Assembly: GCA_963818845.1 (NCBI GenBank)
Contig: CAWFTO010000002.1
Span: 468,016-532,015, forward strand
Reading direction: 5' to 3'
DNA: 64,000 nt
DNA from: Vulcanimicrobiota bacterium
GTDB lineage: Bacteria; Vulcanimicrobiota; Vulcanimicrobiia; Vulcanimicrobiales; Vulcanimicrobiaceae
In this document: positions 20,072 through 35,815 of the stretch, piece by piece
Position numbering within the stretch: the stretch's first letter is position 1
How the letters are laid out: every line of letters starts with the position of its first letter
Notes under the pieces: generated by a model
What the model saw: the letters and a program-made list of their open reading frames with translations, nothing else
Told to the model about the DNA's origin: nothing
Databases searched by the model: none
Position numbers and translations under genes: made by a program

Positions 20072-22123
20072 TCAACGCGGCGCGCAGTCGCCGCTCACGG
20101 CGTCGATCACGCCGGCCGGCGCGAGCGCAAGCTCGTGCGGCAGCTCGCCGTACGCGTACACCGCGAGCGGCCCGAGCGTGCGGGTGATGAACTCCGCCAG
20201 CAGCGCGCGCAGCGGCGCGGTGACGACCAGCGCATGCGGCGCGCACGCCGGATCGCTCGCGTAGCGCGCGATTGCATCGCGAACGTGCGACGCGGTCCGG
20301 GGATCCGGCGCAAGACCGCCGTCCGGCGTCCACATGCGCACGAGCTCGGCCTCGAACGCGGGCGCGACGATCAGCGGGCGCAGCGTTCGAACGCCGTCGC
20401 GCCGCAGCTGCTGCGGTACGAGCGCCAGACGCAGAGCTTCGGCCAGCTCGCGCGCGTCGCGCGACGCGCCCGCGGCGTCGATCAGCGCTTCGAACGCCGC
20501 GACGACGTCGCGCGGCCAGACGCGCTCGCGCAGCAGGTGCACGAAGGCGCGATGCGCGGTCGCGACCGGAAGCGCGTCCGTGCCGACGTCTTTGACGAGC
20601 GTCGGCACCGTCGCGCGCAGGTGCTCCACCAGCGTCTGGAACTCTTGCCGCCCGAACAGCTCGGCCGCATGCGTCCGTGCGATTTCCGCGAGGTGCGAGC
20701 CGACGATGGAAATCGCGTCGAACGTCAGCGTCCCCGCCTGCTGCGCGGCGGCCTGCGCTTCGACGGGGATGCTGCGCGCCGGTAGACCGTAGACGGGCTC
20801 GACGGCCGGATCCCCGGCGAGTCGGGCGAGCGCCGCAGGCTCGCCGACCGCAAGAAGGCGGTCGAGCGCGACGCTTCCGTGCGCCACCGCGCGGTCGCGC
20901 ACCCGGATCGCGTACGTGCGCGGGTCGCGCAACGGATCGTCGCGCAGGCGAACGCCGGGGATCACGATGCCGATCTCGGCGGCGAGCGCGCGCCGCACGT
21001 CGGCGATGCGATCGAGAAGTGCTTCACCGTTCGGCGGCACGAGGAGCCCGTACAGATCGGCGCCGACGTCGATCGCGAGCCCGTCGACGCCCACGAGCGC
21101 GAACGCCGTCTCCGGGCGCCGCACCGCTTCCCTGCGCCGCGTCTCGGCTCGCGCGCGTGCCTGTCCGTCGAGCGCGCGCTTGTGGCGCTCCGCGAGCAGC
21201 GCGCCGCCGAACGCGGTGATGCCGAGCGCGCCGAAGAGCGGCCCGGGGAACGCGGGAACGAACGCCAGCGCGAACACGAGCGCGGCTGCCACGCGCAGCA
21301 CGTCGGGGCGCGCGAGCAGCTGCGCGGCGAGGTCGACGCCGAGCGCGCCGTCGCCGGCGACGCGCGTGACCATGAGCCCCATCGCCGTCGAGATCAGGAA
21401 TGCCGGGAGCGTCGTCAGCAGCGCGTTGCCGATGGAAAGGATCGCGAACGTCTCGATCGCTTCCACCGGCGCCATGCCGTGGTAGACCGTGCCGGTGACG
21501 ACACCGCCGATCAAGTTCAGCACGACGATGACGAGCGCGGCGACGGCATCACCCTTGACGAACTTGCCCGCACCGTCCATCGCGGCGTAGAAGTCCGCTT
21601 CGCGCTGCACGCGCACCCGCTTGCGGCGCGCCGCACCGGCGTCGAGCATCCCGGCGTGCAGATCGGCGTCGATCGCCATCTGCTTGCCCGGCATCGCGTC
21701 GAGCGTGAAGCGCGCGCACACTTCGGCGACGCGCTGTGCGCCGCTCGCGATGACGACGAACTGGATCGTGATGAGGATCGCGAACACGATCAGGCCGACC
21801 ACGACGTTCCCGCGCACCACGAAGGCGCCGAAGGCGGGGATCAGCGCGCCGACCGCGCCCGGCTCGTGCCCTTGCGTGAGGATCAGCCGCGTGGCGCTCA
21901 CGTCCAGCGCGAGCCGGAACAGCGTGGAAAGCAGCAGGCACGGCGCGAACGCGGAGAACTCGAGCGGTTCCTCGACGCGCAGGCTGATCAGCAGCACCAG
22001 CGCGGAGCCGAACATGTTGAGCGCGAGCAGCGCGTCGAGCAGCGGCGGCGGCAGCGGCACGACGAGGATCGCGACGACCGACAGCACGGCCACGGCGAAC
22101 GCGGTCGTGAGCCGGGACGTCAC
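20072..22123 (-). CDS. flhA: FlhA/SctV (FHIPEP) export gate protein
   Basis: FRLALDVSATRLIL, RVAEVCARFTLDAMPGKQMAIDADL, DFYAAMDGAGKFVKGDA; GTG start at 22123. Confidence 0.93.
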   Translation of the reverse strand: MTSRLTTAFAVAVLSVVAILVVPLPPPLLDALLALNMFGSALVLLISLRVEEPLEFSAFAPCLLLSTLFRLALDVSATRLILTQGHEPGAVGALIPAFGAFVVRGNVVVGLIVFAILITIQFVVIASGAQRVAEVCARFTLDAMPGKQMAIDADLHAGMLDAGAARRKRVRVQREADFYAAMDGAGKFVKGDAVAALVIVVLNLIGGVVTGTVYHGMAPVEAIETFAILSIGNALLTTLPAFLISTAMGLMVTRVAGDGALGVDLAAQLLARPDVLRVAAALVFALAFVPAFPGPLFGALGITAFGGALLAERHKRALDGQARARAETRRREAVRRPETAFALVGVDGLAIDVGADLYGLLVPPNGEALLDRIADVRRALAAEIGIVIPGVRLRDDPLRDPRTYAIRVRDRAVAHGSVALDRLLAVGEPAALARLAGDPAVEPVYGLPARSIPVEAQAAAQQAGTLTFDAISIVGSHLAEIARTHAAELFGRQEFQTLVEHLRATVPTLVKDVGTDALPVATAHRAFVHLLRERVWPRDVVAAFEALIDAAGASRDARELAEALRLALVPQQLRRDGVRTLRPLIVAPAFEAELVRMWTPDGGLAPDPRTASHVRDAIARYASDPACAPHALVVTAPLRALLAEFITRTLGPLAVYAYGELPHELALAPAGVIDAVSGDCAPR

Positions 22124-23115
22124 GCGAGCAGCCCTTCGTGCGCGAGATCGGCGATGATCTGGGCGACCGCGACGTACGCATCGAGCGGAATCGCCCGGCC
22201 GCTCTCGCCCTGCGCGTAGAGCAGCCGCGCGAGCGCGACGTCCTCGATCAGCGGAATTCCCCGATCGCGTGCGATGGCACGCACGCGCAGCGCGGCGTCG
22301 TCGACCGCGCGCACGAGAATCTCCGGAACCGGAACCGCCGGCGGTGCATAGCGCAAGGCCACCGCGACGTGCGTCGGGTTCACCACGACGAACGACGCTT
22401 CGCGCGTCCGCGCGACACCGTCTCGCGCGACGGCGCGGTGCGCGCTCTTGCGCCGCGCGCGCGCGTGCGGATCGCCGTCGTTCTCCTTCGCGTCGCGCCG
22501 GAGCTCGTCGAACGACATGCGCAGTCCGTGCAGCCAGCGCCGCCGGACGAGCACGAGGTCGACGACGGCGAACGCCGACCCGACCGCAATCGTCGCGACG
22601 CATGCGCGCAGCGCAGCGGAGCCGGCGAGCCATGCCGCCGCGCCGCCGCTGCCCGCGACGCGCGCCGCGACCATCGCGTCGTACGCGACGGGAGCGACCG
22701 CGAGCAGTGCGGCCGCGAGGGCGCAGCTCGCGCGCGCGAGCCCGACCAGCGCGTGTCCGCCCGCCATGCGCTTGACGCCGGCGACCACGTCGAGCCGCTT
22801 CACATCAAGACGAACCGGCGCGAACGACAGCCCTCCCGACTGCGCGAGCGCCACCGCGACCGCGGTGGCCGCCGCCGCTGCGGCGGGCGCGAGCGCGGCG
22901 GCGGCGAGCTCGACGATCGGCAGCGCCGCACCGGACGGACCGCGCCGCAGCGCGCTCGCGGCGGCCGCCGCCGCAACCGGCACGGCGATCGTGGCGGTGC
23001 ACGTCGCCCCCGCGAACGCGGCGACGCTCGACAGCTCGGCGGAGCGCGCGACGTTCCCTTCGCGCTTTGCGCGGCGCCGGCGCGACGGTGTCGGCTCGAA
23101 GCGCTTGTCGCTCAT
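22120..23115 (-). CDS. flhB: FlhB/SctU export switch protein
   Basis: EPTPSRRRRAKREGNVARS, KENDGDP, autocleavage motif NPTH. Confidence 0.92.
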   Translation of the reverse strand: MSDKRFEPTPSRRRRAKREGNVARSAELSSVAAFAGATCTATIAVPVAAAAAASALRRGPSGAALPIVELAAAALAPAAAAAATAVAVALAQSGGLSFAPVRLDVKRLDVVAGVKRMAGGHALVGLARASCALAAALLAVAPVAYDAMVAARVAGSGGAAAWLAGSAALRACVATIAVGSAFAVVDLVLVRRRWLHGLRMSFDELRRDAKENDGDPHARARRKSAHRAVARDGVARTREASFVVVNPTHVAVALRYAPPAVPVPEILVRAVDDAALRVRAIARDRGIPLIEDVALARLLYAQGESGRAIPLDAYVAVAQIIADLAHEGLLA

Positions 23116-23840
23116 CGAACCGCGCTCCAGGGAAGCACGAGCCACGGGCGCGCGCCCGCCGGCGCCAGTGCGGGTACCGTGACCACGGTGACGAGCAGCG
23201 CCGCCGCGAACACGACGGGGAAGGTGATGCTCATGCTGGACAGTCGCGGCACGACGCGCATGACCGCCGCAAACGCGAGGTGCACGGACGCCGCCACGGC
23301 GATCGCCGGCATCGCGAGGAGCAGCGCCGCCCGTACCAGCGTCTGCGGGAGCGCGAGCGCGTACCGCAGCCAGTCGTCGGGCAGAGCGGCCGCGCCGGCG
23401 GGCACGTGCGCGAACGACGACGCGAACGCCTCGACGACCGGCACCCAGCCGTCGAGCAGCAGAAAGGCGACCAGGAACACCGAGGACCAGAGCCGCCCGA
23501 ACGCTTGCGCGTTCGTGACGTTCGCACCCGGAACGCTGCCGCGCACGCCGAGGTAGTCATCGATGGTGCGACCGGCGAAGAAGGCGCCGTCGTAGAGCAG
23601 CGCGGCGCCGAAGCCGATCGCCGCGCCGAGTACGAAGTCTGCGGCCAGCGCGAACGCCAGCGCGGCGAAGCCGAGCTGCGGCGCCCGCGCGACCGACGGC
23701 GCGACGGCAAACGCGAGCGCTGCTGCGATACCCGCGCGCACGGTGTGCGGCACCGATGGGTGCGAGAAGCACGGAGCGCGCGCCGCGAGTCCCGCCGCGC
23801 GCGCGAACACGAGCCACGTCGTCGCGTCGAAGCCGGCCAC
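23112..23840 (-). CDS. fliR: FliR/SctT export protein (diverged)
   Basis: FARAAG...PCFS...R N-terminus, P...FP C-terminal pattern, position between fliQ and flhB. Confidence 0.85.
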   Translation of the reverse strand: MAGFDATTWLVFARAAGLAARAPCFSHPSVPHTVRAGIAAALAFAVAPSVARAPQLGFAALAFALAADFVLGAAIGFGAALLYDGAFFAGRTIDDYLGVRGSVPGANVTNAQAFGRLWSSVFLVAFLLLDGWVPVVEAFASSFAHVPAGAAALPDDWLRYALALPQTLVRAALLLAMPAIAVAASVHLAFAAVMRVVPRLSSMSITFPVVFAAALLVTVVTVPALAPAGARPWLVLPWSAVR

Positions 23841-23841
23841 G

Positions 23842-24108
23842 TCAGCCGCGCGCCAGCGCGACGATGTGCGCCATCACGTCGCGCAGCAGCTGCGCGCAGA
23901 GCGCCATGCCGAATCGGCCGCCCAGCGCGACGACGGCGCCGACGGCGAGCAGCTTCGGCAGCATCGTGAGCGTCTGTTCCTGAACCTGCGTCGCCGCTTG
24001 CAGGATCGCCACGGCAGCGCCGACGGCCGCGCCCGCAACGAGCACGGGAAGCGCGAGCACTGCCGTGACGACGAGCGCCTCGCGCACGAGTCCGTCGAAA
24101 GCGTCCAC
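23842..24108 (-). CDS. fliQ: FliQ/SctS export protein
   Basis: ILQAATQVQEQTLTMLPKL. Confidence 0.92.
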   Translation of the reverse strand: MDAFDGLVREALVVTAVLALPVLVAGAAVGAAVAILQAATQVQEQTLTMLPKLLAVGAVVALGGRFGMALCAQLLRDVMAHIVALARG

Positions 24109-24156
24109 GCCGCCACCGTAGCGGCGGCGCATTGCCGCCGCGTTACGGCGGCGTGT

Positions 24157-25035
24157 TCACCAGGCTCGTCGAGCCGCCATCAGCGCGGAGAGGACCGCGC
24201 GCGTTGCCGGTGAGCGGTTCAGCGTGTAGAAGTGCACGCCGGGCGCGCCGCGCGCGAGCAGGTCGGCGACCTGCAGCGTCATGTACGCCACGCCGAGGTC
24301 GACGATCGCTTTCGGATCGTCGCGGCGCGCTTCGAGCTCGGCGCGCAGGCTCGGCGGGATCGTCGCGCCGCACATGCGCGTGAAGCGGTCGATCTGCTCG
24401 TAGTTCGTGATCGGCATGATGCCCGGCAGGATCGGCACGGTGATGCCCCAGCGACGCGCCTGCTCGACGAACTCGACGTAGCGCGCGTTGTCGAAGAACA
24501 GCTGCGTCACGAGGAACTCGGCGCCCGCGCGAACTTTCGCACAGAGGCTCTGCAGGTCGGCTTCGAGGCTGGCCGCCTCGGGGTGCTTTTCCGGGTAGCA
24601 CGCGCCGCCGACGCAGAACGGAAACTCGCGTTTGACGAGCGCGATCAGATCGCTCGCGTGCTGCAGTCCGTTGTCGACCGGCACGAACGTGTCGCTTCCG
24701 CGCGGGGGATCGCCGCGAAGCGCCATGACGTTCTCGATGCCGCCGGCGCGCAGGTCCCGCAGCAGCGAGCGCAGGTCGTCGGTCGTCGCGCCGACGCACG
24801 TCACGTGCGCCATCACGTCGAAGCCGGCGTCGGTGCGCAGGCGCTTGGCCACATCGACGGTGCGCGCGCGCGTCGAACCGCCCGCGCCGTACGTGATCGA
24901 GACGAAACCGGGGTCGAGCGGCTTGAGCGTCTCGACGGTCCGGAACAGATTCGCCTCCGCCTCGTCGGTTTGCGGCGGAAAGAACTCGAACGAGAAGAAC
25001 GGCCGGCGCGTCCGCAGCTTTTCCGCGATCCTCAC
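24157..25035 (-). CDS. metF: 5,10-methylenetetrahydrofolate reductase
   Basis: FSFEFFPP, SITYGAGG, AHVTC, ALRGDPP, GACYPEKHPEA, TQLFFD, HFYTLN. Confidence 0.96.
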   Translation of the reverse strand: MRIAEKLRTRRPFFSFEFFPPQTDEAEANLFRTVETLKPLDPGFVSITYGAGGSTRARTVDVAKRLRTDAGFDVMAHVTCVGATTDDLRSLLRDLRAGGIENVMALRGDPPRGSDTFVPVDNGLQHASDLIALVKREFPFCVGGACYPEKHPEAASLEADLQSLCAKVRAGAEFLVTQLFFDNARYVEFVEQARRWGITVPILPGIMPITNYEQIDRFTRMCGATIPPSLRAELEARRDDPKAIVDLGVAYMTLQVADLLARGAPGVHFYTLNRSPATRAVLSALMAARRAW

Positions 25036-25149
25036 GCGGTCCCGTTCTCTCGAGCGGCCAGCCCGCACCCCGGCAACGCGTCCACGAGCCCCGTTATCGG
25101 CGCCATTGGACAGGAGACGCTCAGCAGTGGCGGCCGGCGCTCGTCGCGG

Positions 25150-25726
25150 TCAACCGGCGACGGCGGCCGCCGCGCCCGCCGTGAGCCGCTCGAGCGCGCT
25201 TGCCACGGCATCGGCGCTCGGAGGGCGCTCCTCGGCGATCCACGCCGCGAGCACCGCGATCTGCGCGGCCGCCAGCGCAGCGGCGACCATCGCAGGCGGT
25301 ACGTGCGCGGTGTAGCGCCGCGCCGCAAGCCGCTCCTCGATCAGCCGCGCCAGCAGCCGTGTGACGTGCGGCCGCGCCGCGCCGAGCACGATCGGCGCGG
25401 TCACCTTCCGGTTGGCCCACACGTGCTCCAGCGTCGCGCGCAATCGCACGTCGCGCGAGTCCATGAACGGCGTCGGCCAGCGGCACCACGATCGGCGTCA
25501 TGCTTTGCTCGAGCACGTCGAGCTTGTTCTCGAAGTGCTCGTAGAACGTCGAGCGGCCGACGTTCGCGCGCTCGATCACGTCGCGGACGCTCACGCGCGC
25601 GTAGCCGCGCTCGAACAGAAGCGCGTTGAACGCATGGATCACGGTCGCACGCGTTCGGTCGACGCGCCGGTTCCGGACACCGGCACCCGGCTGTCCGGAA
25701 CCGGACACCACGCGGCCATGCTCCAT
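25150..25726 (-). CDS. TetR/AcrR family regulator (frame break near 25468)
   Basis: RRVDRTR...FERGYARVSVRDVIERANVGRSTFYEHF HTH; the C-terminal ligand domain continues in ORF 25150..25464. Confidence 0.82.
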
Positions 25727-25785
25727 GCGACTTCACGCGAACGTCTGCTACGGTCGAGACCCTTTCACCCGTGAGGTCGCTTCGC

Positions 25786-26471
25786 ATGTCCCAGTCCGAG
25801 CCGGCTGTCGCCGGCGCGAGCCGTCCCGCCCGGGACCGTCGCCGGCGCAACGATCGTCCTGTGCAGCCTGCGTCTCGATCGCGACCGTCGCGCACCATCC
25901 CGTGCTGCACCACGCGCACGGCAACGCCGACGTGCTCGCGCAGCTCCTGGCGCTCCGAACAGCGGACCAGACGGTGCACGGAATCCTCATCGCCGCCGTG
26001 ATCGGCTTGGTGTTCGGATTCACGGTCTTCGCGCTGCGCCGGGGCCTCGGCTCGACGGCCGCGCTGGCGGGCTTGGTGGCCTACGCGCTCGGATCGGTCC
26101 CGGTGATCGGCGCCGCGATGATCGACGGCTTCGTCGTTCCGGCGCTCGCCGCGCGCTATGCGAACGGTTCGGAAAGTGCCGTCACCGGCGCGATGCAGCT
26201 CATCACGCTATGCGCGATCGCCATCCAAGTCTGCACGAAGGTGTGGCTGGTCGCGACATCGGCCGCGGTCGTCATTTGGTCGATGGATCTCGTCCGCGCA
26301 GCGGGCGTCAAGCGCGCGATCGGCATCCTCGGCTTCGTCGCCGGCGTACTCGTCGTCGTCGTCACGGCAATCACCGGGAACGTCAGCGCGCACACGCTCG
26401 GCATCGTCGTGCTGCTGCAGACGCTCTGGAACGTTGCCATCGGCGTCCTCATGATGCGCGGCGACGTATGA
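25786..26471 (+). CDS. Integral membrane hypothetical protein (frame breaks near 25830 and 25870)
   Basis: About 6 hydrophobic helices in ORF 25626..26471; N-terminus MSQSEP...GTVAGATIVLCSL-VSIATVAHHP is split across frames; divergent from the TetR gene. Confidence 0.65.
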
Positions 26472-26510
26472 GCCCTCGTGACGGAGGTTGCACGACTCGC
26501 AACCCGATCA

Positions 26511-27170
26511 TCATCGGAAGCTCTGCACGACGCCGTTGCATACGAGCGCCCAGCCGTCGACGCTGACGAACAGCAGCAGCTTGCACGGCAGCGAGATCAC
26601 CGGCGGCGAGAGCATCACCATGCCCAGGCCCATCAGGATCGCGGAAACGGCGAGGTCGATCGCGACGAACGGCAGATAGAGCGCGACACCGATCGCGAAG
26701 GCCGACCGCAGCTCGCCGACGACGAACGCCGGAATGAGGACCGTGAGCGGCGCGTCGTTCGGCGCCTCATCGGGTGCGCGGTGCGCGACGCGCGCGAAGA
26801 CCGCCAGATCGCGGGCTTTCGTCTGGCGCAGCATGAACGCGCGCAGCGGCCGGCTCGCGCGGTCGACGAAGGCTGACTGTGTCAGCCTCCCCGCCGCGTA
26901 GGGTTTGACGGCGTCGCGCTGCATCGCTTCGAACGACGGCGTCATCACGACGAACGTGAGGATCAAGGCGAGGCCGGTCAGCACGGCGTTCGGCGGTAGC
27001 ATCGTGCTGCCGATCGCCGAGCGGACCAGCGACAGCACGACGACGATCCGCACGAACGACGTCGAGAGCACGAGCACGAACGGCGCGATCGACAACAGCG
27101 TCAGGCCGGCGAGGATGTCGAGCGGCAGCGCCGCGTGGCCGGGGTGCGCGATCCGCAGCAGGTCGTCCAT
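26511..27170 (-). CDS. fliP: FliP/SctR export pore protein
   Basis: TSFVRIVVVLSLVRSAIG, PPNAVLTGLALILT, LIPAFVVGELRSAF, GMVMLSPPVISLPCKLLLFV.VDGW. Confidence 0.93.
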   Translation of the reverse strand: MDDLLRIAHPGHAALPLDILAGLTLLSIAPFVLVLSTSFVRIVVVLSLVRSAIGSTMLPPNAVLTGLALILTFVVMTPSFEAMQRDAVKPYAAGRLTQSAFVDRASRPLRAFMLRQTKARDLAVFARVAHRAPDEAPNDAPLTVLIPAFVVGELRSAFAIGVALYLPFVAIDLAVSAILMGLGMVMLSPPVISLPCKLLLFVSVDGWALVCNGVVQSFR

Positions 27171-27215
27171 GCCCCAATGGTGCGGGGCACGGCGGACCGC
27201 CGTGCGTCCGGGACG

Positions 27216-27473
27216 TTACGGCTTCTCGATCAGCTCCGTGATGCGCACGCCGAAGTTCTCGTCGATCGCGACGACCTCGCCGCGCGCGACGAGCCGGTCG
27301 TTCACGAGCAGGTCCACGGGGCCGCCAGCCAAGCGGTCGAGCTCGACGATCGAGCCGGTTCCCAGCTTGAGGATGTCGCGAACGAGCATCTTGCACGTGC
27401 CGAGTTCCGCCGTCACCTTGAGCGGCACGTTCATCAAGAGGTCGAGGTTCTTGCCTTGCTCGGTCATCGTCAT
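27216..27473 (-). CDS. fliN: FliN (SpoA domain) C-ring protein
   Basis: [16 protein letters not shown]...[41 protein letters not shown]. Confidence 0.93.
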
Positions 27474-28264
27474 CCGTGGGCTCCCGTTGCGACGTCGTGA
27501 ACCAAAAAGGCCGCTCGTGATGCGACGACGCCGGCGAGGCCGCCGGCAAGACGGGTTCCTCCGACGTTCAAGGATGCCGGGCCGCCGACCTTGGTATCAA
27601 GCCTCACGACGTGACCGGGACGCATGCGCACGAATTCAGACGCTTCTACCGTACCTTCGGCGAAAACCGCGCGCGCTTCAAGCGTTACGTCGTCCAGCAG
27701 GCAGGCGCCGAGGGTGGCGCGAGGCTCGGCCTCCGGGAGCTCGCGCGTCAGGCCGATCCCGACCGTGAGCGGCAGCGGCGAGCGAACGCGCAGGTCGACG
27801 TAGGAGCAGCACGCCGGCACGTCGCGGTGCGCGACGGCACGGCCGGCGGACGGCGCGCCGTCGCACACCGCGCCGAACGCCTCGGCGCACCGGGCCGCGA
27901 TCCGTTCCAGCGCGGCTCGCTCGAGCGCGGAACACGCGGGCGGGTCGGCGTGCGGAACGCCGGCCTCGCCGAACGCGCGCAGGACGAGCCGGCGCGCGTC
28001 GGCGGCCGGCAGCACGAGGACCGCATCGGCCGGCCGCCCGCGCCGGACGAAGAGCAGCGCATCGCGCGTGAGCGCGTCCCACGCGCTCGGCGTGAGGGCG
28101 ACCGGCTCCCCGACCGTGAGCTCGCAGTCGCCGAGCAGCTCGCGCAGCGTCGCCTCGACGTCCCGCGCGACGGCGCACGCCGCCGCGACCGGCAGCGCAG
28201 GGCGCTGCACGAATCGCATGCGACGCACGCCCTGCGCCGCGGTGAACCGCGCCGACGCGATCAC
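27470..28264 (-). CDS. Diverged FliM/SctQ-like protein with C-terminal SpoA domain
   Basis: C-terminal [15 protein letters not shown]...[10 protein letters not shown] SpoA pattern; immediately upstream of fliN with overlapping start/stop. Confidence 0.65.
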
Positions 28265-28986
28265 TTGACGAGGTCCACGGCGGTCTTTTGCACGCGCGCG
28301 CCTGCCGAAACCGCGGCGCCCAGCGCCTCGAACGCGCGGTACGCCTCGTCGAGGCGAGCGACGCCCGCCGCAACATCGATCGCGCCCGCATCGCGGCTCG
28401 CAACCGCGAGCGGCGCGAACGTTCCGTCCCCCGGCGTGCCGAGATGCGGCACGACGTTCTTGGGCGCAGCGACGCGCGTGCCGTCGAGCCGCGCGGGCTG
28501 CGTTCCGGCCGGGAAGCGCGCGAGCGCCACGCGACCGAGCACGACGCGCTCGGTGCTGCGCGCACCGGTATGCGGGTCGAACGCGTCGCGCGCGTACGCG
28601 ACGGTCCCATCGGGTTCGACGCGCGCGCCGGCAGCGCGTCCCAGCGCGCGGTCGACGTCCGGCACGCGCAACGGAACCGCCACCGCGCCGCGCGCATCGG
28701 CCCCGGGATACCCCAGCACCTCCGCGCCCGACGCCGTCCGCAGCACGCCGTCCGCGAGCGTGAACGATCCGTCGCGCTCGTACGCACGCGTTCCGTCCCC
28801 GCCGCGCGTGACGAACCACGCGTTCGCGGGCGGCACCGCGCTGAGCGGATCCGCCGACGGCACGACGTGCGGCTCCGCCCGCACGTCGTCATTGAGCGGC
28901 ACGGCGCCGGGCCGGAACGCATCCCGCAGATCGTGCGCGCGCGAGAGCATGCGTTCGTACGCCTCCACCGGCGAAGCGCCGATCAC
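28261..28986 (-). CDS. Diverged FlgG/FlgF/FlgE-family rod or hook protein
   Basis: AYERDGSFTLADGVLRTASGAEVLGY matches the YTRDGSF motif; C-terminal helix LDEAYRAFEA matches the rod D0 helix; N-terminal ANNLAN motif not recognisable. Confidence 0.72.
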   Translation of the reverse strand: MIGASPVEAYERMLSRAHDLRDAFRPGAVPLNDDVRAEPHVVPSADPLSAVPPANAWFVTRGGDGTRAYERDGSFTLADGVLRTASGAEVLGYPGADARGAVAVPLRVPDVDRALGRAAGARVEPDGTVAYARDAFDPHTGARSTERVVLGRVALARFPAGTQPARLDGTRVAAPKNVVPHLGTPGDGTFAPLAVASRDAGAIDVAAGVARLDEAYRAFEALGAAVSAGARVQKTAVDLVK

Positions 28987-29555
28987 GACGCCACCCGCGC
29001 AGGCACGCCGTGCGCCGCCAACACGAACCGCGCATGCGCGAGCGCGCGCTCCACGCGCTCCCGCAAACGCGGCGAGCACACCGCCACAACACGCGTAGAC
29101 TCGCCATCGGACCGCACCAAAACCTGCACGCGCCCACCCCCATCCCGCACCACAAACGACATGACCGCACTCCGCCGCGCGCCGTCGCGCAGCGCCGCGC
29201 GCGCCCCAATCTCACGCGCCACGCCGCGCGCGAGCGGCGAAGCCGCAATGCGCCGTCCCCCCAACTCCGTCACCTCGCTCGCGCCCGCCCGGCCGTGCGC
29301 ACGCGCGGTATCCCCGCGGGGCCTCGCGGAGCCCGATCCGCCAGGACTGGCGGATCGCGCGGAGCGCGGAGCCTGACGTTCGCCCACGACGGGCGAACGT
29401 GAGGCGTCCCCGGCGGGGATACCGCGCGTGCGCACGGCCGGGCCGCCACCACCCTCGGCGATGTGCAGAGCACTGTACCAAGCCTGCGAGAGCGCCCTAC
29501 GATCCGTCCGCGCCAAATCGGTCGCGACCACCGCGACATCCAACGTCTGCTGCAT
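28983..29555 (-). CDS. Short FliK/SctP-like protein
   Basis: 190 aa; low-complexity middle, then a T3S4-like C-terminus (VQVLVRSDGESTRVVAVCSPRLRERVERAL); fliK position in the operon. Confidence 0.5.
   Translation of the reverse strand: MQQTLDVAVVATDLARTDRRALSQAWYSALHIAEGGGGPAVRTRGIPAGDASRSPVVGERQAPRSARSASPGGSGSARPRGDTARAHGRAGASEVTELGGRRIAASPLARGVAREIGARAALRDGARRSAVMSFVVRDGGGRVQVLVRSDGESTRVVAVCSPRLRERVERALAHARFVLAAHGVPARVAS
29287..29443. repeat. Palindromic element with 31-bp terminal inverted repeats and two inner hairpins, inside a CDS
   Basis: 29287-29317 and 29413-29443 are perfect reverse complements; inner GATCCGCCA-GGAC-TGGCGGATC and ACGTTCGCCC-ACGAC-GGGCGAACGT. Confidence 0.88.
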
Positions 29556-29637
29556 CGATCGTCCTCCGCAGCCGACGATACCGCGCCGAGCACGCCGAGA
29601 CGGTTACGCGCATGTTGCCGCGTTGCGCGGCGGCAGT

Positions 29638-31245
29638 CTACCTGCGCGCCGTGCGCTTGCGGCCGTCGTCGAAGCTCGCGCCGGGCGCGAGGTACATGCC
29701 GGCATTGCCGATGTCGAAGGTCGCGACGAAGTTGCGGAGGACGCCGAGGCCGACGTTGCCGGCGTCGACGCGGTCGGCGAACGCACCCTGCTTCGCGAGA
29801 ACGACGTCGACGCTGCGATGGAAGAGGTCGAAGCCGCCGAGCTCGACGGCGTCGAGCGACGTGCGGTACGTCGCGTTCGCGCCGCCGATGCCGTAGCTCC
29901 AGGACGGCAGCGCCGAGAACGGCACGATGCCGGGGTGCGCGTCGAGGAACGGGCGGTAGAGCAGCATCTCGCCGCTGTTGCCGGTGTCGACGATGAACGG
30001 CGCGTCGAGGCGTCCGTTGACGCGCACTTTCGCTTCGGCGAGCTCGCGGTCCACGTCGAGGTCGATGTGCGTTCCGCGCGGCGTGAACGAGCCCGGCGGT
30101 CCGAACCGCAGCACGCCGGCGGCGAAGTCCATCTCGACGACGGCCGAAGCGAAGAACGGATAGCCCAGGATGCCGTCGATCTTCGCGCCGCCGAACAGGC
30201 TGCGGCCGATGTCGAGCGACGAGACGACGACCTCGTTCATCGGCACACCATCGATCTCGAGCTTCGGCAGCACGGCGGTCACGAGTCCGCCGCTGCGCCC
30301 GGCGCCGCGCACTTCCATCGCGCCCTCGCCGGCGACGCCGGCAGCCTTGAGCACGGCGGTGTCGACGAGGATGGACTGCGCGCCGGTGTCGAGCAGAAAG
30401 AACCAGTCGCGGTTCGCGATGCGCACCTGGATGCCGACGTGACCGTCGCGCTCGATCAGCGGCACGGTGTGCACGCCCGACGTGAGCGCGCGCGCTTCGA
30501 GCAGCGTGAACGCGCTCGGATCGACGGGTACGCCGACGCGCACCGACGTCGTCTGCTGCACGGTGTCGAACCGGTGGTCGCCGTCGGTGAGCACGTTGCG
30601 GAAGGCGATCTTGCGCCCGTCGACGTCGCGCCAGTCCGAGTAGTCGACGTACGACGGTCCGTCGCCGTCGAGGTATTCGAGGCGCAGCGGCAAGCCCGTC
30701 GACGGGTCGATCCACAGCGTCTCGGGCTCGCCGCCGTCGGCGTTGACTTCCAGGCGCCACGCCTTGACGTCGCCGTCGTCGCCCCAGCCTGCGAACCGCG
30801 CGCGCTCGGGATGACGCACGAAGTCGCCGGAGCCGATCAGCTCGTCGGTCAGCGCGCGGCGGCGCAGATATCCGCGCAGCTCGCGCACGTTGCCGTTCGC
30901 GTTGCGGACGTAGATGCGGTCGCCTAGACGCAGCGTCGTCTCGCGACGCGGTCCCATCACGTCGTCCTCGCGTTCGCGCTCGCCGTCGCGCACGGTGCGG
31001 AACGTGCCGCTGAGACCTTCGCCTTCGAGCGTCCCTTCGGCGACGTACGACGTGATGTCGTCGGAATGCGTCGCACGGTCGTACGCGGCGAGAATCGTCG
31101 CGACGGGGACGTCGAGCGACGTCGCGGGCCTGTTCGCCGCGCGCGCGGGAAGCGCGCAGAGCGTCAGCGCGACCGCGCTAACGGCCGCTGCTGTACGAGT
31201 CGAACGAAGCCAAGACGTTTTGGACGTAGTTGCGGGTCTCCGCAT
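29638..31245 (-). CDS. Secreted aspartyl protease with two retropepsin-like domains
   Basis: Signal peptide (AVALTLCALPARA), FLLDTGAQ and FIVDTGNS catalytic motifs, IDGILGYPFF and GNVGLGVLRNF flaps. Start uncertain. Confidence 0.82.
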   Translation of the reverse strand: MRRPATTSKTSWLRSTRTAAAVSAVALTLCALPARAANRPATSLDVPVATILAAYDRATHSDDITSYVAEGTLEGEGLSGTFRTVRDGEREREDDVMGPRRETTLRLGDRIYVRNANGNVRELRGYLRRRALTDELIGSGDFVRHPERARFAGWGDDGDVKAWRLEVNADGGEPETLWIDPSTGLPLRLEYLDGDGPSYVDYSDWRDVDGRKIAFRNVLTDGDHRFDTVQQTTSVRVGVPVDPSAFTLLEARALTSGVHTVPLIERDGHVGIQVRIANRDWFFLLDTGAQSILVDTAVLKAAGVAGEGAMEVRGAGRSGGLVTAVLPKLEIDGVPMNEVVVSSLDIGRSLFGGAKIDGILGYPFFASAVVEMDFAAGVLRFGPPGSFTPRGTHIDLDVDRELAEAKVRVNGRLDAPFIVDTGNSGEMLLYRPFLDAHPGIVPFSALPSWSYGIGGANATYRTSLDAVELGGFDLFHRSVDVVLAKQGAFADRVDAGNVGLGVLRNFVATFDIGNAGMYLAPGASFDDGRKRTARR

Positions 31246-31798
31246 ACGGTGGTACCCCACCATACTTCTCCACCGCACCCGGGCCCGCATTGTAGGCGGC
31301 GACGGCGAGCCGCGTATCGCCGCCGAAGCGGTCGAGCAAGCCGCGCAGATACCGCGTGCCGCCTGCGACGTTCTGTACGGGATCGTACGCGTCGCGAACG
31401 CCGAGCGACGCCGCCGTGTCCGGCATGAGCTGCATGAGGCCTTGCGCGCCCGTCTTCGACGTCGCGTTCGCGTTGAAGCCGGACTCGTTCGCAATGACGG
31501 CCTTGACGAGCGCGGGATCGACCTGCCACGCCGAGGCGTTCTGCTGCACGAGCGCGTCGACGTCGGCCGGCGCGACGGGAGCCGCCGCACGCGCAGGCAT
31601 GCCGCTGCCGGGCGCATCCGTGCCGCCCGCGTCCAGACCGTAGCCGCGGAGTCCCGGATGCAGCGCGCTCGCCAGGGCGGTCGCGAACCGCGGCGCGCCG
31701 ACGGATGCATCGGGCTGCGCGACGGCCGCAGGCGGCTGCACCCCGGTGATCTGCGCGATGCGGCTTTGCACCGCCGCCATCTCGGCGAAGACGTCCAT
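31178..31798 (-). CDS. Lytic transglycosylase (SLT domain)
   Basis: AVIANESGFN, GAQGLMQLMPDTA, NVAGGTRYL, AAYNAGPG, ETRNYV. Confidence 0.93.
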   Translation of the reverse strand: MDVFAEMAAVQSRIAQITGVQPPAAVAQPDASVGAPRFATALASALHPGLRGYGLDAGGTDAPGSGMPARAAAPVAPADVDALVQQNASAWQVDPALVKAVIANESGFNANATSKTGAQGLMQLMPDTAASLGVRDAYDPVQNVAGGTRYLRGLLDRFGGDTRLAVAAYNAGPGAVEKYGGVPPYAETRNYVQNVLASFDSYSSGR

Positions 31799-33039
31799 CA
31801 CGTCAAGATATCGGCCAGGCGGCACAGGAGCGTGAGGGTTTCGGCCGGCTCGGACGGCTCGTCGCCCTGGACGAGGAAGCGGTCGAGGTCGGATTCGTAC
31901 GCCGCGCAGCGTGCGAGGAACGGCTCCGCGCCCGCGATACCGAGGCTGCGGGCGTCCCGCGACGCGTCCAGCGCCGCCACGGCCGCCCGCACCACCCGCG
32001 CGGCGGCGACGTGCGCGGGAGATCCGGCGGCCGCGAGCGTGCGGCTGGCGCTGCGCGGCACGTCGATCGCGGGGAACCGTCCCGCGTGCGCGAGGCGCTC
32101 GGCCAGGACGAGGTGTCCGTCGAGGGCGGCGCGCGCCGCGGTCACGACGGGATCGTGCTCGTCGATGCCGTCGGCGAGCACCGAGGCGACCAGGGTCACG
32201 GAGGCGTCGCGCGTGCGTCCGGCACGCTCGAGCAGGCGCGCGAGCAGCGCGAACACGCTGGCCGGGTATCCGCCGCGGCCGGCCGGCTCGCCCGCCGCGA
32301 TGGCGACGTCGCGGGCTGCCGCGCAGACGCGCGCGAGGGAGTCCACCACCAGCAGCACGTCGAGCCCGCGCGCGCGCAGTGCGGCCGCCTGCGCGAACGC
32401 GACCTCGGCGGCGCGAACGCGTTCGGCGGCGGACCGATCCGCCGTCGCGCAGACGACCGTGGTGCGCGCGTCGATGTGCGCGATGCGGCGTTCCGCTTCC
32501 CGGCCGCGCTCGCCGATCAGCGCGACGACGACGGCATCGCAGCGCGCGCCGCGCGCGATCGCGTCGAGCAGCGATGATTTTCCCGTGCCCGCCCCGCCGA
32601 TGACGCCGACCCGCGCGCCGCGCGCGATCGCGAGGGGGCCGTCGACGGCGCGGACGCCGGTCCAGAGCACGTCGTCGCAGGGAAGGCGTTCGGCCGGCGC
32701 CGGCGCGAGGGCATCGCACGCGTGCAGCCGCCCGCGCGGCGTCGCACGGCCGTCGAGCGGATGCGCGGCGCCGTCGATCGCGCGCCCGAGCAGCGGCGTG
32801 CCGAGCGGGACGCGCAACGCCGTCGCGACCGCCTCGACGCGGTCGCCCGCGGCGACGCCGTCGAGAGCGCCGAACGGCGCGGCGACGGCGCGCTCGCCGT
32901 CGAGCGCGACGATGCGCGCGTGCACGGCGCGGTCGCGCGCGCAGATCCGCACGCCGTCACCGACGCGCGCGAACGGCAGGCGCACGTGCGCGAGGCCGCC
33001 GCGCGCGGCATCGACGCGACCCACGGGGCGCCCCGTCAT
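31798..33039 (-). CDS. fliI: FliI/SctN export ATPase
   Basis: Walker A GGAGTGKS, LIGERGRE, Walker B LLVVDSLAR, GEPAGRGGYPASVF, LDGHLVL, FPAIDV. Confidence 0.92.
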   Translation of the reverse strand: MTGRPVGRVDAARGGLAHVRLPFARVGDGVRICARDRAVHARIVALDGERAVAAPFGALDGVAAGDRVEAVATALRVPLGTPLLGRAIDGAAHPLDGRATPRGRLHACDALAPAPAERLPCDDVLWTGVRAVDGPLAIARGARVGVIGGAGTGKSSLLDAIARGARCDAVVVALIGERGREAERRIAHIDARTTVVCATADRSAAERVRAAEVAFAQAAALRARGLDVLLVVDSLARVCAAARDVAIAAGEPAGRGGYPASVFALLARLLERAGRTRDASVTLVASVLADGIDEHDPVVTAARAALDGHLVLAERLAHAGRFPAIDVPRSASRTLAAAGSPAHVAAARVVRAAVAALDASRDARSLGIAGAEPFLARCAAYESDLDRFLVQGDEPSEPAETLTLLCRLADILT

Positions 33040-33545
33040 GCGAGCTCCTCGAGGACGACCGCGATCCGCGCGCCGAGCCGCGCGTCGACCGCGCCGCCGT
33101 GCAGCTCGACGATCGCGTCGCCGGCGTCGAGCGCGTCGTCCGGCACGACGGCGACCTCGCGCACGCACGCGCTCTCACCGGGCGCGACGCGGATGCAGAC
33201 GGCCGGTGCACGCCGCACGACGTCGCGTACGATCGCTTCGATGTCGCACGGCGCAAGGCGCAGCTCGCGCGCGACGACGCGCACGGCGAGCTCGCGCAAC
33301 AAGCGCGGCACCGCTTCGTCGAGCGCGTCGGCGAGCCGCGCGCGGAACAGGCGCGCGTCGCGCAGCGCGTTCCGGAACGCCTCGTCGTCCGCCGGTCTGG
33401 ATGCGAGCGAGGCATCCACCGTCGCGCCGGCTTCGGCGTCCGGCGCACTCGGCGGCGGAGCGCCGTCGCCTGCCGGCTCGCCGGCGTCGACCGCCGGAGC
33501 GCGCGGGCGCAGCAGCTCCGCAAGCGTGACGAACTCAGCGCCCAC
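33036..33545 (-). CDS. fliH: FliH/SctL-like ATPase regulator (short)
   Basis: C-terminal VVPDDALDAGDAIVELHGGAVDARL FliH pattern; directly upstream of fliI. Confidence 0.75.
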   Translation of the reverse strand: MGAEFVTLAELLRPRAPAVDAGEPAGDGAPPPSAPDAEAGATVDASLASRPADDEAFRNALRDARLFRARLADALDEAVPRLLRELAVRVVARELRLAPCDIEAIVRDVVRRAPAVCIRVAPGESACVREVAVVPDDALDAGDAIVELHGGAVDARLGARIAVVLEELA

Positions 33546-34996
33546 GCAACAGCTCCTCGACGGACGGGAGCAGCGCGCGATTCGCGTTCGGCAGCCGCCG
33601 CACGATCGCCGCGCGCTCGGCGCCGGCGTACAGTTCGAGCACGGCGGCCGCGCTGGCCGCGGGCAGCGACGCGATCACCGCGGCGGCGACGTGCGCCGGC
33701 TCGTCACGCAGCGCGTCGCGCACGCGATCGGGCGGAATCGCCGCCGCGTCGCGAACCGCGCCGCGCGCCGCGGCCGACTCGGCCGCGCGCGCCGCGACCA
33801 GCGCCAGCGGGCGCGCCGCCAGCGCGACGGCGACGACCACGGCGACGGCGGTCAGCGCCTGCGGCACCAGCCCGGCCGCGGTCGCGAGCCACGGCGAGGC
33901 CGTGCGCGCCGGTCCGTCGCCGCGCACGGTACCGGTGAACGCGACGGCTTCCACCGTCAGGACGTCGCCGCGGTCCGATCGCACGCCGGCCGCGGCAGCG
34001 GCGAGCGCGCGGATCTTCGTGAGGTCGAGCGCGCGCGCCGCGTCGACGAACACCGCCACCGTCAGCCGCGCCGTCGCACCGGGCCCCGCGACGCGATGTT
34101 CCTCGCGCGTCGCGCTGCCGCGGTCTTCGGTCGCGCTCGTCTTCGAGTACCGCTTCGCGCCGGATGCGTACCGCTCGTCGCTCGTCGTGCGCGCGAGGCT
34201 GCCGTCGAGCGCGGCGCGCCGGACGTCGTGCACGTCGCGCCGTTCGCCCAGCGGCTCGCGCCGCACGCGCACGATCGTCGCGCCGGCGCCGAATGCTGCG
34301 TCGAGCGCGCTCTGCAGCGCACCCTGCACGTCCTCGTCGTCCGCGTCGCCCGCAGCGAGCGCGCCGCGGTCGTCGATGACGGTAACGCGCTCGGGGTCGA
34401 GCCCCGGGACGCCGCCCGCGACGAACGACTTGATCGCCGCGACCGTCTGCGCGCTGGGATGCGCACCGGCCGCGAGCGTCAGACGCACGCCGGCCGTCGC
34501 ATCGCGATGCGGTTCGTCGGCGTAGACTCCGGCGGCCGACGGCGCGATCACGACGCGCGCGTCGACGATGCCGTCCACGCCGCGCAGCGCGAGCGCGAGG
34601 TCCGCGGCGAGCGCGTCGCGCGTCTGCGCTTCGAGCACGGTCTGCGGCGTGAGCGCGCCCGTGTGCGCGAGCGCCTCGCCGCTGCCCGCCAAGTGCGGCC
34701 GCGGGATGCCCGCGAGCGCGAGCCGCAGCAGCAGCTCGGGACGCTTCGGGCGCGCGACGCGCACGTTGTCCGCCTCCGGCGCATACGGCACGCCCCACGC
34801 CGCCAGGCGGGTTTCGACGTCGGCGAGCTGATCGGGTCGCAGCGCGCTCGAGAACAGCGCGACCCGCGTGTCGCGGGATGCGACGAACCCGGCGACGCCG
34901 AGCGCGAGCAGCAGCGCGACGGCTCCCGCGGCGCCGAGCCGGGCGCGCGCGCGGCCACGCGCGCACGCGCGCGAGCAGCGGGGCGTGCGGCACCAT
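33535..34996 (-). CDS. fliF: FliF/SctJ-like ring protein with FliG-middle-domain-like C-terminal extension (frame break near 34945)
   Basis: TM helix, LAAWGVPY, LRGVDGIVDARVVI, ATAGVRL, VAGGVPGL.PERVTVIDDRG, RLTVAVFVD, second TM, then LRDEPAHVAAAVIASL. ATG 34996 is one base out of frame. Confidence 0.8.
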
Positions 34997-35271
34997 CACA
35001 GCTGCATGCCGAGCAGCGTCGTCAGCGACTGCGCGGTGCGCTGCGCCGCGGTTGCGGCGATCTGCAGCGCGATGTCGGCGCGCGCGCGTTCGACCACCAT
35101 TTCCTGCAGGCCGCCGCGGTGCGCGGTGAACGCCGCCTCGGCACGGTCCGCTCCGTCGAGGATGGCACTCGCGGCGTCGACGAGACGCGCGAAGGCGTCC
35201 GTCGCCGGCGCGCCCGCGCGCGGGGTGCTCGGCGCAGCGGGACCGTCGGGCACGAGCACGTCGACGCGCAT
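34996..35271 (-). CDS. fliE: FliE basal-body protein
   Basis: LQEMVVERARADIALQIAATAAQRTAQSLTTLLGMQL matches the FliE C-terminus; correct operon position. Confidence 0.8.
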   Translation of the reverse strand: MRVDVLVPDGPAAPSTPRAGAPATDAFARLVDAASAILDGADRAEAAFTAHRGGLQEMVVERARADIALQIAATAAQRTAQSLTTLLGMQL

Positions 35272-35627
35272 CAGAGCCGTCCCACGTCCAGCGTGCGTTC
35301 GGCGAGCCGTTTGCCGACGTCGAAGACGCTGGCGTCCGCCTCGTACGCGCGCTGCGCATCGAGCACGGCGACCATCTCGGTGAGCGGGTCGGCGGTTTCG
35401 CCCGACGGCGCGACGCCGGCGATGCGCGTCCACGGCGTCTCGTCGTCGTCGAAGACCGGTTCGCCGTCGTCCGGCCGCCGCGACTCAACCTGCGCCACGA
35501 GCCGCGCGTACGGATGCTGCGGCGACGAGGCTTGCGCCGCCGCGACGTTGCGCGCGGCGACGTCGAGCATCGCCCGCTCGACGCCCATGCCGTCCGCGGC
35601 GATCGAAAGCACGTCGAACTCGCTCAT
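35271..35627 (-). CDS. flgC: FlgC-like rod protein (short)
   Basis: LSIAADGMGVERAMLDVAARNVA and DPLTEMVAVLDAQRAYEADASVF. Confidence 0.85.
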   Translation of the reverse strand: MSEFDVLSIAADGMGVERAMLDVAARNVAAAQASSPQHPYARLVAQVESRRPDDGEPVFDDDETPWTRIAGVAPSGETADPLTEMVAVLDAQRAYEADASVFDVGKRLAERTLDVGRL

Positions 35628-35815
35628 CGCGCGACGGTCCGCAACTCGGCAACGTGCGCGCGGATCGCGCCGAGCAGCGCCTCCTGGAACAGCGCCGCGC
35701 GCGCGATCCGCGCGGTCGCGCGCTCGTCCCGCGCGGCGTCCGGCGCGAGCCGCGCCACGTCGTCGCGCGCGGCGCGGGCCGCGTCGGCGGGCGGAAAGAT
35801 CGGGTCGTTCGTCAT
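35624..35815 (-). CDS. 63-aa FlgB-like remnant
   Basis: First gene of the operon, stop overlaps the flgC start; C-terminal helix ALFQEALLGAIRAHVAELRTVAR weakly FlgB-like. Confidence 0.45.
   Translation of the reverse strand: MTNDPIFPPADAARAARDDVARLAPDAARDERATARIARAALFQEALLGAIRAHVAELRTVAR

Follow-up and report, generated by a model that had tools for sequence, protein, structure and literature searches.

Why would a bacterium keep a long operon of flagellar export genes at a locus that holds neither filament nor motor genes? This question is raised by a 64,000-nucleotide stretch of DNA (C2:468016-532015, hereafter the window) from the 3.92-Mb, 4-contig genome of a soil bacterium of the family Vulcanimicrobiaceae (Eremiobacterota), in which one long minus-strand gene run, from 35815 down to 20072, encodes a flagellum-derived type III secretion system (T3SS). 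We call this T3SS system 2, and the canonical flagellum that the same genome encodes elsewhere system 1. A preliminary description of the window had read the locus as a repurposed machine that is neither a rotary flagellum nor an injectisome, and had named a decaying or dispersed flagellar locus as the alternative. The analysis presented here indicates that system 2 is probably a non-rotating, filament-less, flagellum-derived type III export machine, independent of the canonical flagellum of the genome. Throughout the text, coordinates without a contig or locus name are positions in the window, f1 stands for the Vulcanimicrobiaceae, f2 and f3 for a second and a third family, f2 belonging to the same order, and G042 for another class.

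Gene order and export apparatus

The G+C content of the window (70%) makes raw lists of open reading frames (ORFs) noisy. Genes were picked by their position-specific G+C at third codon positions (GC3). GC3 frame analysis and Pfam matches together give the order FlgB-like, FlgC, FliE-like, FliF, FliH, FliI, lytic transglycosylase (SLT), aspartyl protease, FliK-like, FlgE-like, FliM, FliN, FliP, an insert containing metF, FliQ, FliR, FlhB and FlhA, which is the order that had been described for 20072-35815. The operon is translationally coupled: most of its genes are joined by ATGA or GTGA overlaps of start and stop codons, which agrees with the mostly overlapping codons reported earlier. The cluster follows the same order as the fla/che type of Bacillus and other Terrabacteria, also in agreement with the preliminary description.

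The export apparatus consists of FlhA (here FlhA2; 20072..22123; FHIPEP, 627 bits), the switch protein FlhB (22120..23115; Bac_export_2, 227 bits), the gate proteins FliR (23112..23840; Bac_export_1, 111 bits), FliQ (23842..24132; Bac_export_3, 71 bits) and FliP (26511..27170; Pfam FliP, 239 bits), and the 413-amino-acid (aa) export ATPase FliI (31798..33039; ATP-synt_ab, 200 bits). Of its catalytic motifs, which had been said to be intact, two were seen again: FliI carries the Walker A motif GGAGTGKSS and FlhB the autocleavage site N-P-T-H. Across 28 orthologues of FlhB the N, P and H of this site never change, and the third residue alone varies. The ATPase regulator, a FliH-like protein of 169 aa (33036..33545), matches Pfam FliH weakly (19 bits, E 0.0012) and is assigned also by its position and by the conservation of its orthologues.

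Resident flagellum and phylogeny

Two FHIPEP genes are present in the genome. The second belongs to a gene set at C3:700-725 kb whose proteins are 26-50% identical to those of the window (tblastn), and this set, with further loci, makes up a canonical flhA/fliF/fliG/motB/flgH/flgI/flagellin complement; the search for a second canonical set had been proposed as a check. In six-frame hidden Markov model (HMM) scans, system 1 shows FliG_C at C3:702934, MotB_plug at C3:712174, and FlgH and FlgI at C1:444 kb; it also comprises FlhA1, FliF1, FliG1, four flagellin-family genes and six further rod/hook genes. The FliG_C match of system 1 is the only one in the genome, and none was found in the f3 genomes or in G019, the cultured relative described below.

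An FlhA/SctV tree was computed from 92 sequences (LG+G4), with four SctV of non-pathogen plasmids as the root and without Myxococcales sequences or FlhA of other Eremiobacterota classes. In it, the FlhA2 proteins of f1 and f2 are joined by the one FlhA that f3 has, in a clade with an SH-aLRT of 100 whose branching, (f3,(f2,f1)), mirrors taxonomy. Around this clade stand flagellar FlhAs from Armatimonadota, Bacillota, Actinomycetota and Chloroflexota; the SctV sequences are split off at 100, and FlhA1 of the genus lies elsewhere in the FlhA tree. The tree that had been called for thus gives FlhA2 a separate clade inside flagellar FlhA, apart from both the resident FlhA1 and SctV. The sister of this clade is the representative P0004, 41% identical to FlhA2, and the FlhAs of other classes stand at 40-44%; by identity and bit score P0004 resembles the latter, and its context, a 5-kb contig with FliR-FlhB-FlhA only, is uninformative.

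Comparisons with the PDB point the same way for both proteins examined: FlhA2 scores 387, 362 and 333 bits with FlhA and 333 and 271 bits with SctV, and FliI2 scores 238 bits with FliI and 223 bits with EscN. The closest named homologue of FlhA2 (79%) comes from a Vulcanimicrobiaceae metagenome-assembled genome, and all other matches are ordinary flagellar FlhAs at 34-46%. Among 1.84 billion representatives, about three full-length 50%-identity clusters stand above the generic FlhA level. Judged from these sequence comparisons, system 2 is an old, narrow and vertically inherited lineage of flagellar type; it did not come from duplication of system 1, and it is not an injectisome. As an aside, the FlhA of L033 (CAWADW010000005.1, 'uncultured proteobacterium MFD00731.bin.2.48') falls within the f3 clade, so that its 'proteobacterium' label is probably wrong.

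These results bear on the idea that system 2 delivers effectors on contact in the manner of an injectisome, as a member or sister of the non-flagellar T3SSs (NF-T3SSs). In favour of this idea, system 2 is non-motile and its platform resembles SctQ, and the secretin-less systems of Myxococcales have been described as early NF-T3SSs (PMC3459982). Nevertheless, FlhA2 lies inside flagellar FlhA and away from the four SctV, flagellar rod/hook proteins and FliK are kept, and the carriers live freely in soil and peat. Neither the cluster ORFs nor the conserved flanks contain families of the secretin (SctC), the needle (SctF) or the translocon, no genome-wide secretin search having been made. We consider an injectisome-like role very unlikely.

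Distribution

The order of the cluster is kept within the genus at 60-100% aa identity and in f2 at 33-75%, as well as in three further genera of the family and in G042, from another class of the phylum, whose FlhA is 40% identical; in f3 the cluster occupies three loci, with its internal order unchanged. A relative of FlhA2 is present in 191 of the 201 phylum genomes. When 47 contiguous Vulcanimicrobiaceae genomes were cross-tabulated for FlhA and flagellin, FlhA2 was the only FlhA, with no flagellin above cut-off, in 28; two or more FlhAs occurred together with flagellins in 15, neither was found in three, and the remaining genome gave a weak FlhA match only.

Genomes that carry system 2 alone retain all of its genes and lack the parts of a rotating flagellum that were looked for, hook-associated proteins included. 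In six-frame HMM scans, FliG_C, FlgH and FlgI were absent from those tested, and MotB_plug was absent from all 12 and occurred only alongside system 1 (MotA was not searched separately). Flagellin_N gave no match above cut-off in G019, in the f3 genomes or in the 28 family genomes with FlhA2 only. Five sub-threshold Flagellin_N matches (20-23 bits) in system-2-only genomes were considered as diverged flagellins and rejected, being HlyD/EmrA-type membrane-fusion proteins with Q/A-rich coiled coils.

G019 is the genome of Vulcanimicrobium alpinum WC8-2, a cultured bacterium in which system 2 is the only T3SS. According to its published description, WC8-2 is diderm, moves by type IV pili, shows no flagella by negative-stain electron microscopy and has no flagellin gene; chemotaxis genes are present, and fliN is the only gene of the flagellar kind that is reported. 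The locus tag of that fliN, WPS_28550 (of 3,577 genes), is consistent with the position of FliN2 in G019.

Could system 2 nonetheless be a rotating, motile flagellum whose filament, stator and torque parts have diverged beyond recognition? The retention of a rod, a hook-family protein, FliK, FliM and FliN would suit such an organelle, as would the chemotaxis genes of V. alpinum and a chemoreceptor gene beside the FlgF/FlgG pair (see below). This is hard to reconcile with a carrier that has no flagella under the microscope and whose motility is ascribed to type IV pili, with scans that find no Flagellin_N, FliG_C or MotB_plug and whose sub-threshold 'flagellin' is of HlyD type, and with a FliM that has no CheY-binding segment; we regard it as highly improbable. 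System 2 stands alone in aflagellate relatives, the cultured one among them. Together with the second canonical set, the FlhA tree and the dN/dS values given below, this supports the earlier view of a machine that is not rotary, not an injectisome and not decaying.

In other Eremiobacterota classes, G084, G071, G041 and further genomes of 5-9 Mb contain 4-7 FlhA-like matches each, several of them without flagellin. These large genomes may hold multiple T3SS-type systems or multiple motor-less copies.

Selection

Ratios of nonsynonymous to synonymous substitution (dN/dS) were calculated pairwise (NG86) for close pairs with unsaturated dS. The f2 pair L021/L024, which has both systems, gave 0.05-0.24 over all genes (dS 0.28-0.67); of the two pairs with system 2 only, G161/G187 gave 0.025-0.31 (13 genes, dS 0.14-0.32) and G081/G167 gave 0.085-0.28 (13 genes, dS 0.42-0.63), all of these values being approximate because NG86 was applied to GC-rich genes. 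The small ORFs are likewise constrained, with ratios of 0.07-0.09 for the FlgB-like and 0.14-0.15 for the FliE-like one. A dN/dS near 1 had been named as the mark of decay, and the observed range of 0.025-0.31 is far from it, also in the pairs without a flagellum: purifying selection acts on all genes of system 2.

The view that system 2 is what decay has left of a former flagellum, or belongs to the resident one as a scattered piece, draws on the short and diverged structural proteins, the missing motor and filament genes, the frameshift of fliF in this assembly and the unrelated insert that parts fliP from fliQ. We reject decay because dN/dS is low across the system-2 genes, including those of genomes without any flagellum. 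Moreover, intact syntenic clusters are found in dozens of genomes from at least three families and another class, the resident flagellum owns complete paralogues, and true decay in this lineage looks different, FlgG being broken where FlhA2 has been lost. Dispersal applies in part, in that a pair of rod genes lies elsewhere in the genome; as an account of the whole locus, however, a decaying or dispersed flagellum is the least credible of the explanations weighed here.

The fliF2 frameshift is due to a (GC)n tract that, near codon 18, is one base longer than in three relatives whose gene starts are normal. Assembly indel errors are plausible at this site because the canonical P-ring gene flgI of the same assembly (C1:443593-444631) is also split, over two frames, the copies of its relatives being intact. 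The split of flgI reflects either an assembly indel or an impaired system 1 in this strain.

Rotor, platform and axial proteins

The MS-ring protein FliF (33535..34996; YscJ_FliF 82, YscJ_FliF_C 46 and FliG_M 23 bits) has a distinctive C-terminus. Conservation of the last ~60 residues extends over f1, f2 and f3, and a profile of them matches only FliG in the PDB, best 3HJL (E 7.8e-6), on the EHPQR-bearing ARM motif; hhalign aligns them with the EHPQ segment of FliG1 from the same genome. When an AlphaFold2 (AF2) model of the C-terminus (pLDDT 83-95) was compared by Foldseek, the ten best matches were all to FliG (E 0.03), and the model superposes on FliG_M from FliG-FliM complexes at 0.9 Å rmsd. 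The earlier statement that fliG is missing hence needs to be divided: the FliG_C torque domain of system 2 is gone, but a FliG-middle-domain motif has been kept, fused to the C-terminus of FliF.

The partner proteins are in line with this arrangement. FliM (249 aa, 27470..28219) matches FliMN_C (44 bits) in its SpoA part only, and its N-terminal domain is predicted to adopt the FliM middle-domain fold (AF2 pLDDT 80-89), its top Foldseek matches being the C-ring FliM of Salmonella (E 4e-8) and crystal structures of FliM_M in complex with FliG. As only ~10 residues stand before the middle domain, the CheY-binding segment is missing. FliN (85 aa, 27216..27473; FliMN_C, 91 bits) is 94-100% identical within the genus. 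As modelled, the MS ring itself would be the docking site of the switch complex, a torque domain being absent. Lacking FliG_C, MotAB and a CheY site, system 2 would be capable of neither torque nor switching.

Among the axial proteins, FlgC, FlgF, FlgG and a FlgE-like protein are recognised. The FlgC-like proximal rod protein (118 aa, 35271..35627; Pfam Flg_bbr_C, 23 bits, E 5.7e-5) has orthologues in f1, f2 and f3, and the f2 copies also weakly match the N-terminal Flg_bb_rod. The FlgE-like protein (~242 aa, 28261..28989; Pfam FlgE/F/G D1, 27 bits) is a minimal member of the hook family made of D0-D1 only. It had been labelled 'flgG-like', a name that we revise: the gene occupies the flgE slot of the fla/che order, and its profile scores 100.6 bits with FlgE as against 71 bits with FlgG in the PDB.

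The FlgB-like (63 aa, 35624..35815) and FliE-like (91 aa, 34996..35271) ORFs are undetectable by profile. By alignment, the former is conserved in the genus and f2 and the latter in f1 and f3, and the latter also shows an MQL/MQV C-terminal ending (LLGMQL in the window). The FlgB-like ORF has no match in Pfam, in the PDB or to the FlgB of system 1; the FliE-like ORF has none in Pfam or the PDB, and its profile misses the system-1 protein of its own genome. Identification by profile was abandoned on these grounds, nothing in the PDB and no system-1 protein of the same genome having been detected. What stands of the earlier assignments is that conserved ORFs occupy these positions; they carry no family signal, and the identity of the FlgB-like one is unproven. 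FlgB, FlgC and FliE serve as flagellum-specific markers in TXSScan.

The ruler/switch candidate is a FliK-like protein of 190 aa (28983..29555), recognised by its architecture and by Flg_hook matches of its orthologues. Alignment of these shows a conserved N-terminus, a variable P/A/R linker and a conserved C-terminal domain; two of ten match Pfam Flg_hook (E 5e-5), although the protein of the window itself matches no Pfam family, and a profile search of the PDB gave no match. The lytic transglycosylase SLT (31178..31798; Pfam SLT, 110 bits) has no signal peptide, and the catalytic Glu of its ANESGF motif is invariant in 16 orthologues. Its gene, which directly follows that of FliI in f1, f2, f3 and another class, is a signature gene of system 2. 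Given the invariant Glu and the missing signal peptide, the enzyme is plausibly a T3SS substrate in the manner of FlgJ.

The preliminary description had counted a single rod/hook gene beyond flgBC. This is true of the locus, but a FlgF-like and a FlgG-like gene of the same system form a two-gene operon ~160 kb away, at C2:664001-665310. The pair accompanies every system-2 genome, including G019, f3 and other classes, and decays in three genomes of the family without FlhA2: stop codons interrupt the FlgG orthologue of G194 and that of G202, while G077 retains no more than a weak remnant. Because the pair is co-eliminated where FlhA2 has been lost, it belongs with system 2. A methyl-accepting chemotaxis protein gene (C2:665471-667570) stands divergent from the FlgF/FlgG operon, although FliM2 is without the CheY-binding segment.

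Accessory and flanking genes

The aspartyl protease gene (29638..31245) encodes a secreted protein with a LolA-like and a double retropepsin-like part (two Asp_protease_2 matches, 66 bits; a weak LolA_like match; a Sec-type signal peptide). It is present in the genus and in f2 and absent from the g12, g15, g17, f3 and G042 clusters; we thus rejected it as a core part and regard it as an accessory, lineage-specific insertion. The family has 5-6 paralogues in the genome, and the operon copy is under purifying selection, with a dN/dS of about 0.19-0.25.

The insert between fliP and fliQ (24157..26471) contains metF (24157-25068, minus strand; MTHFR, 308 bits), a TetR_C-like fragment (25150-25464, minus strand; Pfam) and a membrane ORF (25626-26471, plus strand). 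That an insert lies here had been seen correctly, but it is not an arbitrary one. A co-directional metF occupies the junction in all Vulcanimicrobiaceae genera examined (for instance L128:10271-11182, L130:5107-6015 and L137:13434-14411), and not in f2, f3 or G042; the TetR_C-like fragment and the membrane ORF are common to the nearest relative only. We considered the insert as a sign of disruption and rejected this, since metF stands there co-directionally throughout the family, which bespeaks an old and tolerated arrangement. The housekeeping gene metF is presumably co-transcribed with the T3SS operon.

The same junction gathers variable extra genes (1-9 kb) in the genus of the window. In two loci of this genus, L012 (G017) and L013 (G006), fliP and the upstream genes do not lie within 20 kb of fliQ-fliR-flhB-flhA, and a FliF2-type gene is ~15-30 kb away, so that the operon has come apart between fliP and fliQ.

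At the head of the operon, a divergent gene encodes a GAF-PAS-nucleotide cyclase (35860..37593, plus strand; Pfam), its start codon ~44 bp from that of the operon. The cyclase keeps this place within the genus and also in f2, g17 and f3 (42-88% identity), and not in g12. A role as a cyclic-nucleotide regulator of system 2 is possible.

Discussion

System 2 is most likely a real, functional and non-rotary machine, as the conservation of its sequences suggests, and no description of it was found in the literature that could be searched, where, apart from a remark on lacking flagellin, no T3SS or flagellar system is connected with Eremiobacterota, WPS-2, Baltobacterales or Vulcanimicrobium.

The findings presented above allow us to propose a model of how such a machine might work. 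The FliF MS ring would surround the FliPQR-FlhB-FlhA gate, and the FliG_M motif on FliF would recruit the FliM middle domain and FliN. Together they would form a sorting platform resembling a C ring, but static, to which FliH-FliI are bound. The gate would export the FliE-like protein, FlgC, FlgF, FlgG and the minimal FlgE-like subunit, and also the signal-less SLT, which would open the peptidoglycan. The product would be a rod with a short hook-like stub. Its length would be set by the FliK-type protein, a short ruler that acts through the N-P-x-H switch of FlhB, and the two would in this way end or switch export. Without L and P rings, the axial structure would stop below the outer membrane, or cross it by some other means.

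What the machine does after switching is a finer question. There may be a nearly even chance, or somewhat less, that it then exports non-flagellar cargo into the periplasm or beyond and so serves for secretion; if not, the functional product would be the stub. Cargo secretion has a precedent, because flagellin-less Lysobacter secretes non-flagellar proteins (PMC7688988). On the alternative account, a functional machine would build a periplasmic rod and stub serving, for example, to brace the envelope, to tether or push the outer membrane, or to mark a site of peptidoglycan remodelling; it would export its own parts and SLT only, with no cargo secretion. In favour of this, the recognisable substrates are all axial proteins, FliK and SLT, no conserved effector, chaperone or outer-membrane pore gene goes with the cluster, and there are no L and P rings for crossing the outer membrane. 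Against it, the FliK-like protein and the invariant FlhB site suggest a later substrate switch, although hook-length control also needs both, and flagellin-less flagellar T3SSs (FT3SSs) elsewhere do export cargo (PMC7688988). We find a purely structural role rather unlikely, if worth serious thought.

Several points weigh against the reading of system 2 as an independent export machine that no longer rotates. No conserved cargo or chaperone genes lie beside the cluster, the conserved flanks being the divergent cyclase and rplM synteny only, and no outer-membrane pore is known for system 2 in this diderm cell, so that export beyond the periplasm is unexplained. FliJ, FliO and FlgD are not recognised for system 2, and the FlgB-like and FliE-like assignments are positional only. 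The FliG_M signals, though concordant, are weak (23 bits; E 7.8e-6; Foldseek E 0.03, 0.9 Å), and the dN/dS values carry the imprecision noted above. Finally, if the fliF2 frameshift is real, the copy of this particular strain could be inactive.

The conversion of a motility organelle into a secretion machine is usually reconstructed from one event, the origin of the injectisome. We tentatively suggest, while leaning slightly towards doubt, that in system 2 the flagellum has been turned to dedicated protein secretion for a second time, independently of that origin, with FliF-FliG_M docking as its own solution. If this were true, system 2 would be an independent, stable and widespread case of the motility-less, secretin-less stage, and a living example of what has been a hypothetical first step: it has kept the rod and a mini-hook, has dropped torque, stator, bushings and filament, and has rewired the link from MS ring to C ring. 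In this regard, V. alpinum WC8-2, as a cultured, genome-complete and aflagellate carrier, makes structure, expression and cargo directly testable, and system 2 provides structural studies with a minimal basal body that occurs in nature. For annotation, flagellar genes in Eremiobacterota should not be taken as a sign of swimming.

Among known systems, the fla/che flagellum of Bacillus and other Terrabacteria is the one that system 2 resembles in gene order, rod/hook-family proteins, FliK, FlhB cleavage site and FlhA clade. Unlike it, system 2 has no flagellin, hook-associated proteins, FliG N- and C-domains, MotAB, FlgD, FliJ, FliL, FliO or FlhF/G, and no L and P rings in spite of a diderm envelope; its FliG_M is fused to FliF, its FliM lacks the CheY end, and SLT follows fliI. 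Engineered FliF-FliG fusions exist in Salmonella, and in these, as in system 2, FliG sequence is covalently attached to the C-terminus of FliF, with the difference that system 2 keeps one middle-domain ARM motif only.

Flagellar export and basal-body genes in filament-less bacteria are also known from two other settings. Lysobacter enzymogenes OH11, which has no flagella, expresses a flagellin-less FT3SS, shows FliI-dependent secretion of non-flagellar proteins and retains flgD, flgE, flgH and flgI (PMC7688988), and Buchnera aphidicola keeps basal bodies without filaments (PMC8109811). Both are recent relics of a resident flagellum, whereas system 2 is ancient, phylum-wide and remodelled, and in many genomes stands beside a separate full flagellum; in contrast to these relics, it has no rings, stator or torque domain and carries the FliF-FliG_M fusion. 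Nor does it look like a recent relic by divergence, being 26-50% identical to the resident flagellum and forming a deep clade that follows the species tree.

Lastly, Abby and Rocha (2012) reported flagella-like loci in about a dozen non-flagellated species and concluded that the injectisome arose once, via a motility-less, secretin-less stage (PMC3459982). For the secretin-less NF-T3SSs of Myxococcales, function was argued from the long-term conservation of sequence and gene order, and translocation free of host contact was proposed (PMC3459982). These systems and system 2 are alike in being non-motile T3SSs without a secretin. The former, however, belong within the monophyletic NF-T3SSs, while system 2 is flagellar by the FlhA tree, in which no Myxococcales sequence was included, and keeps flagellar axial proteins. 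Because its FlhA is flagellar and its axial proteins have been kept, system 2 would represent an independent exaptation.

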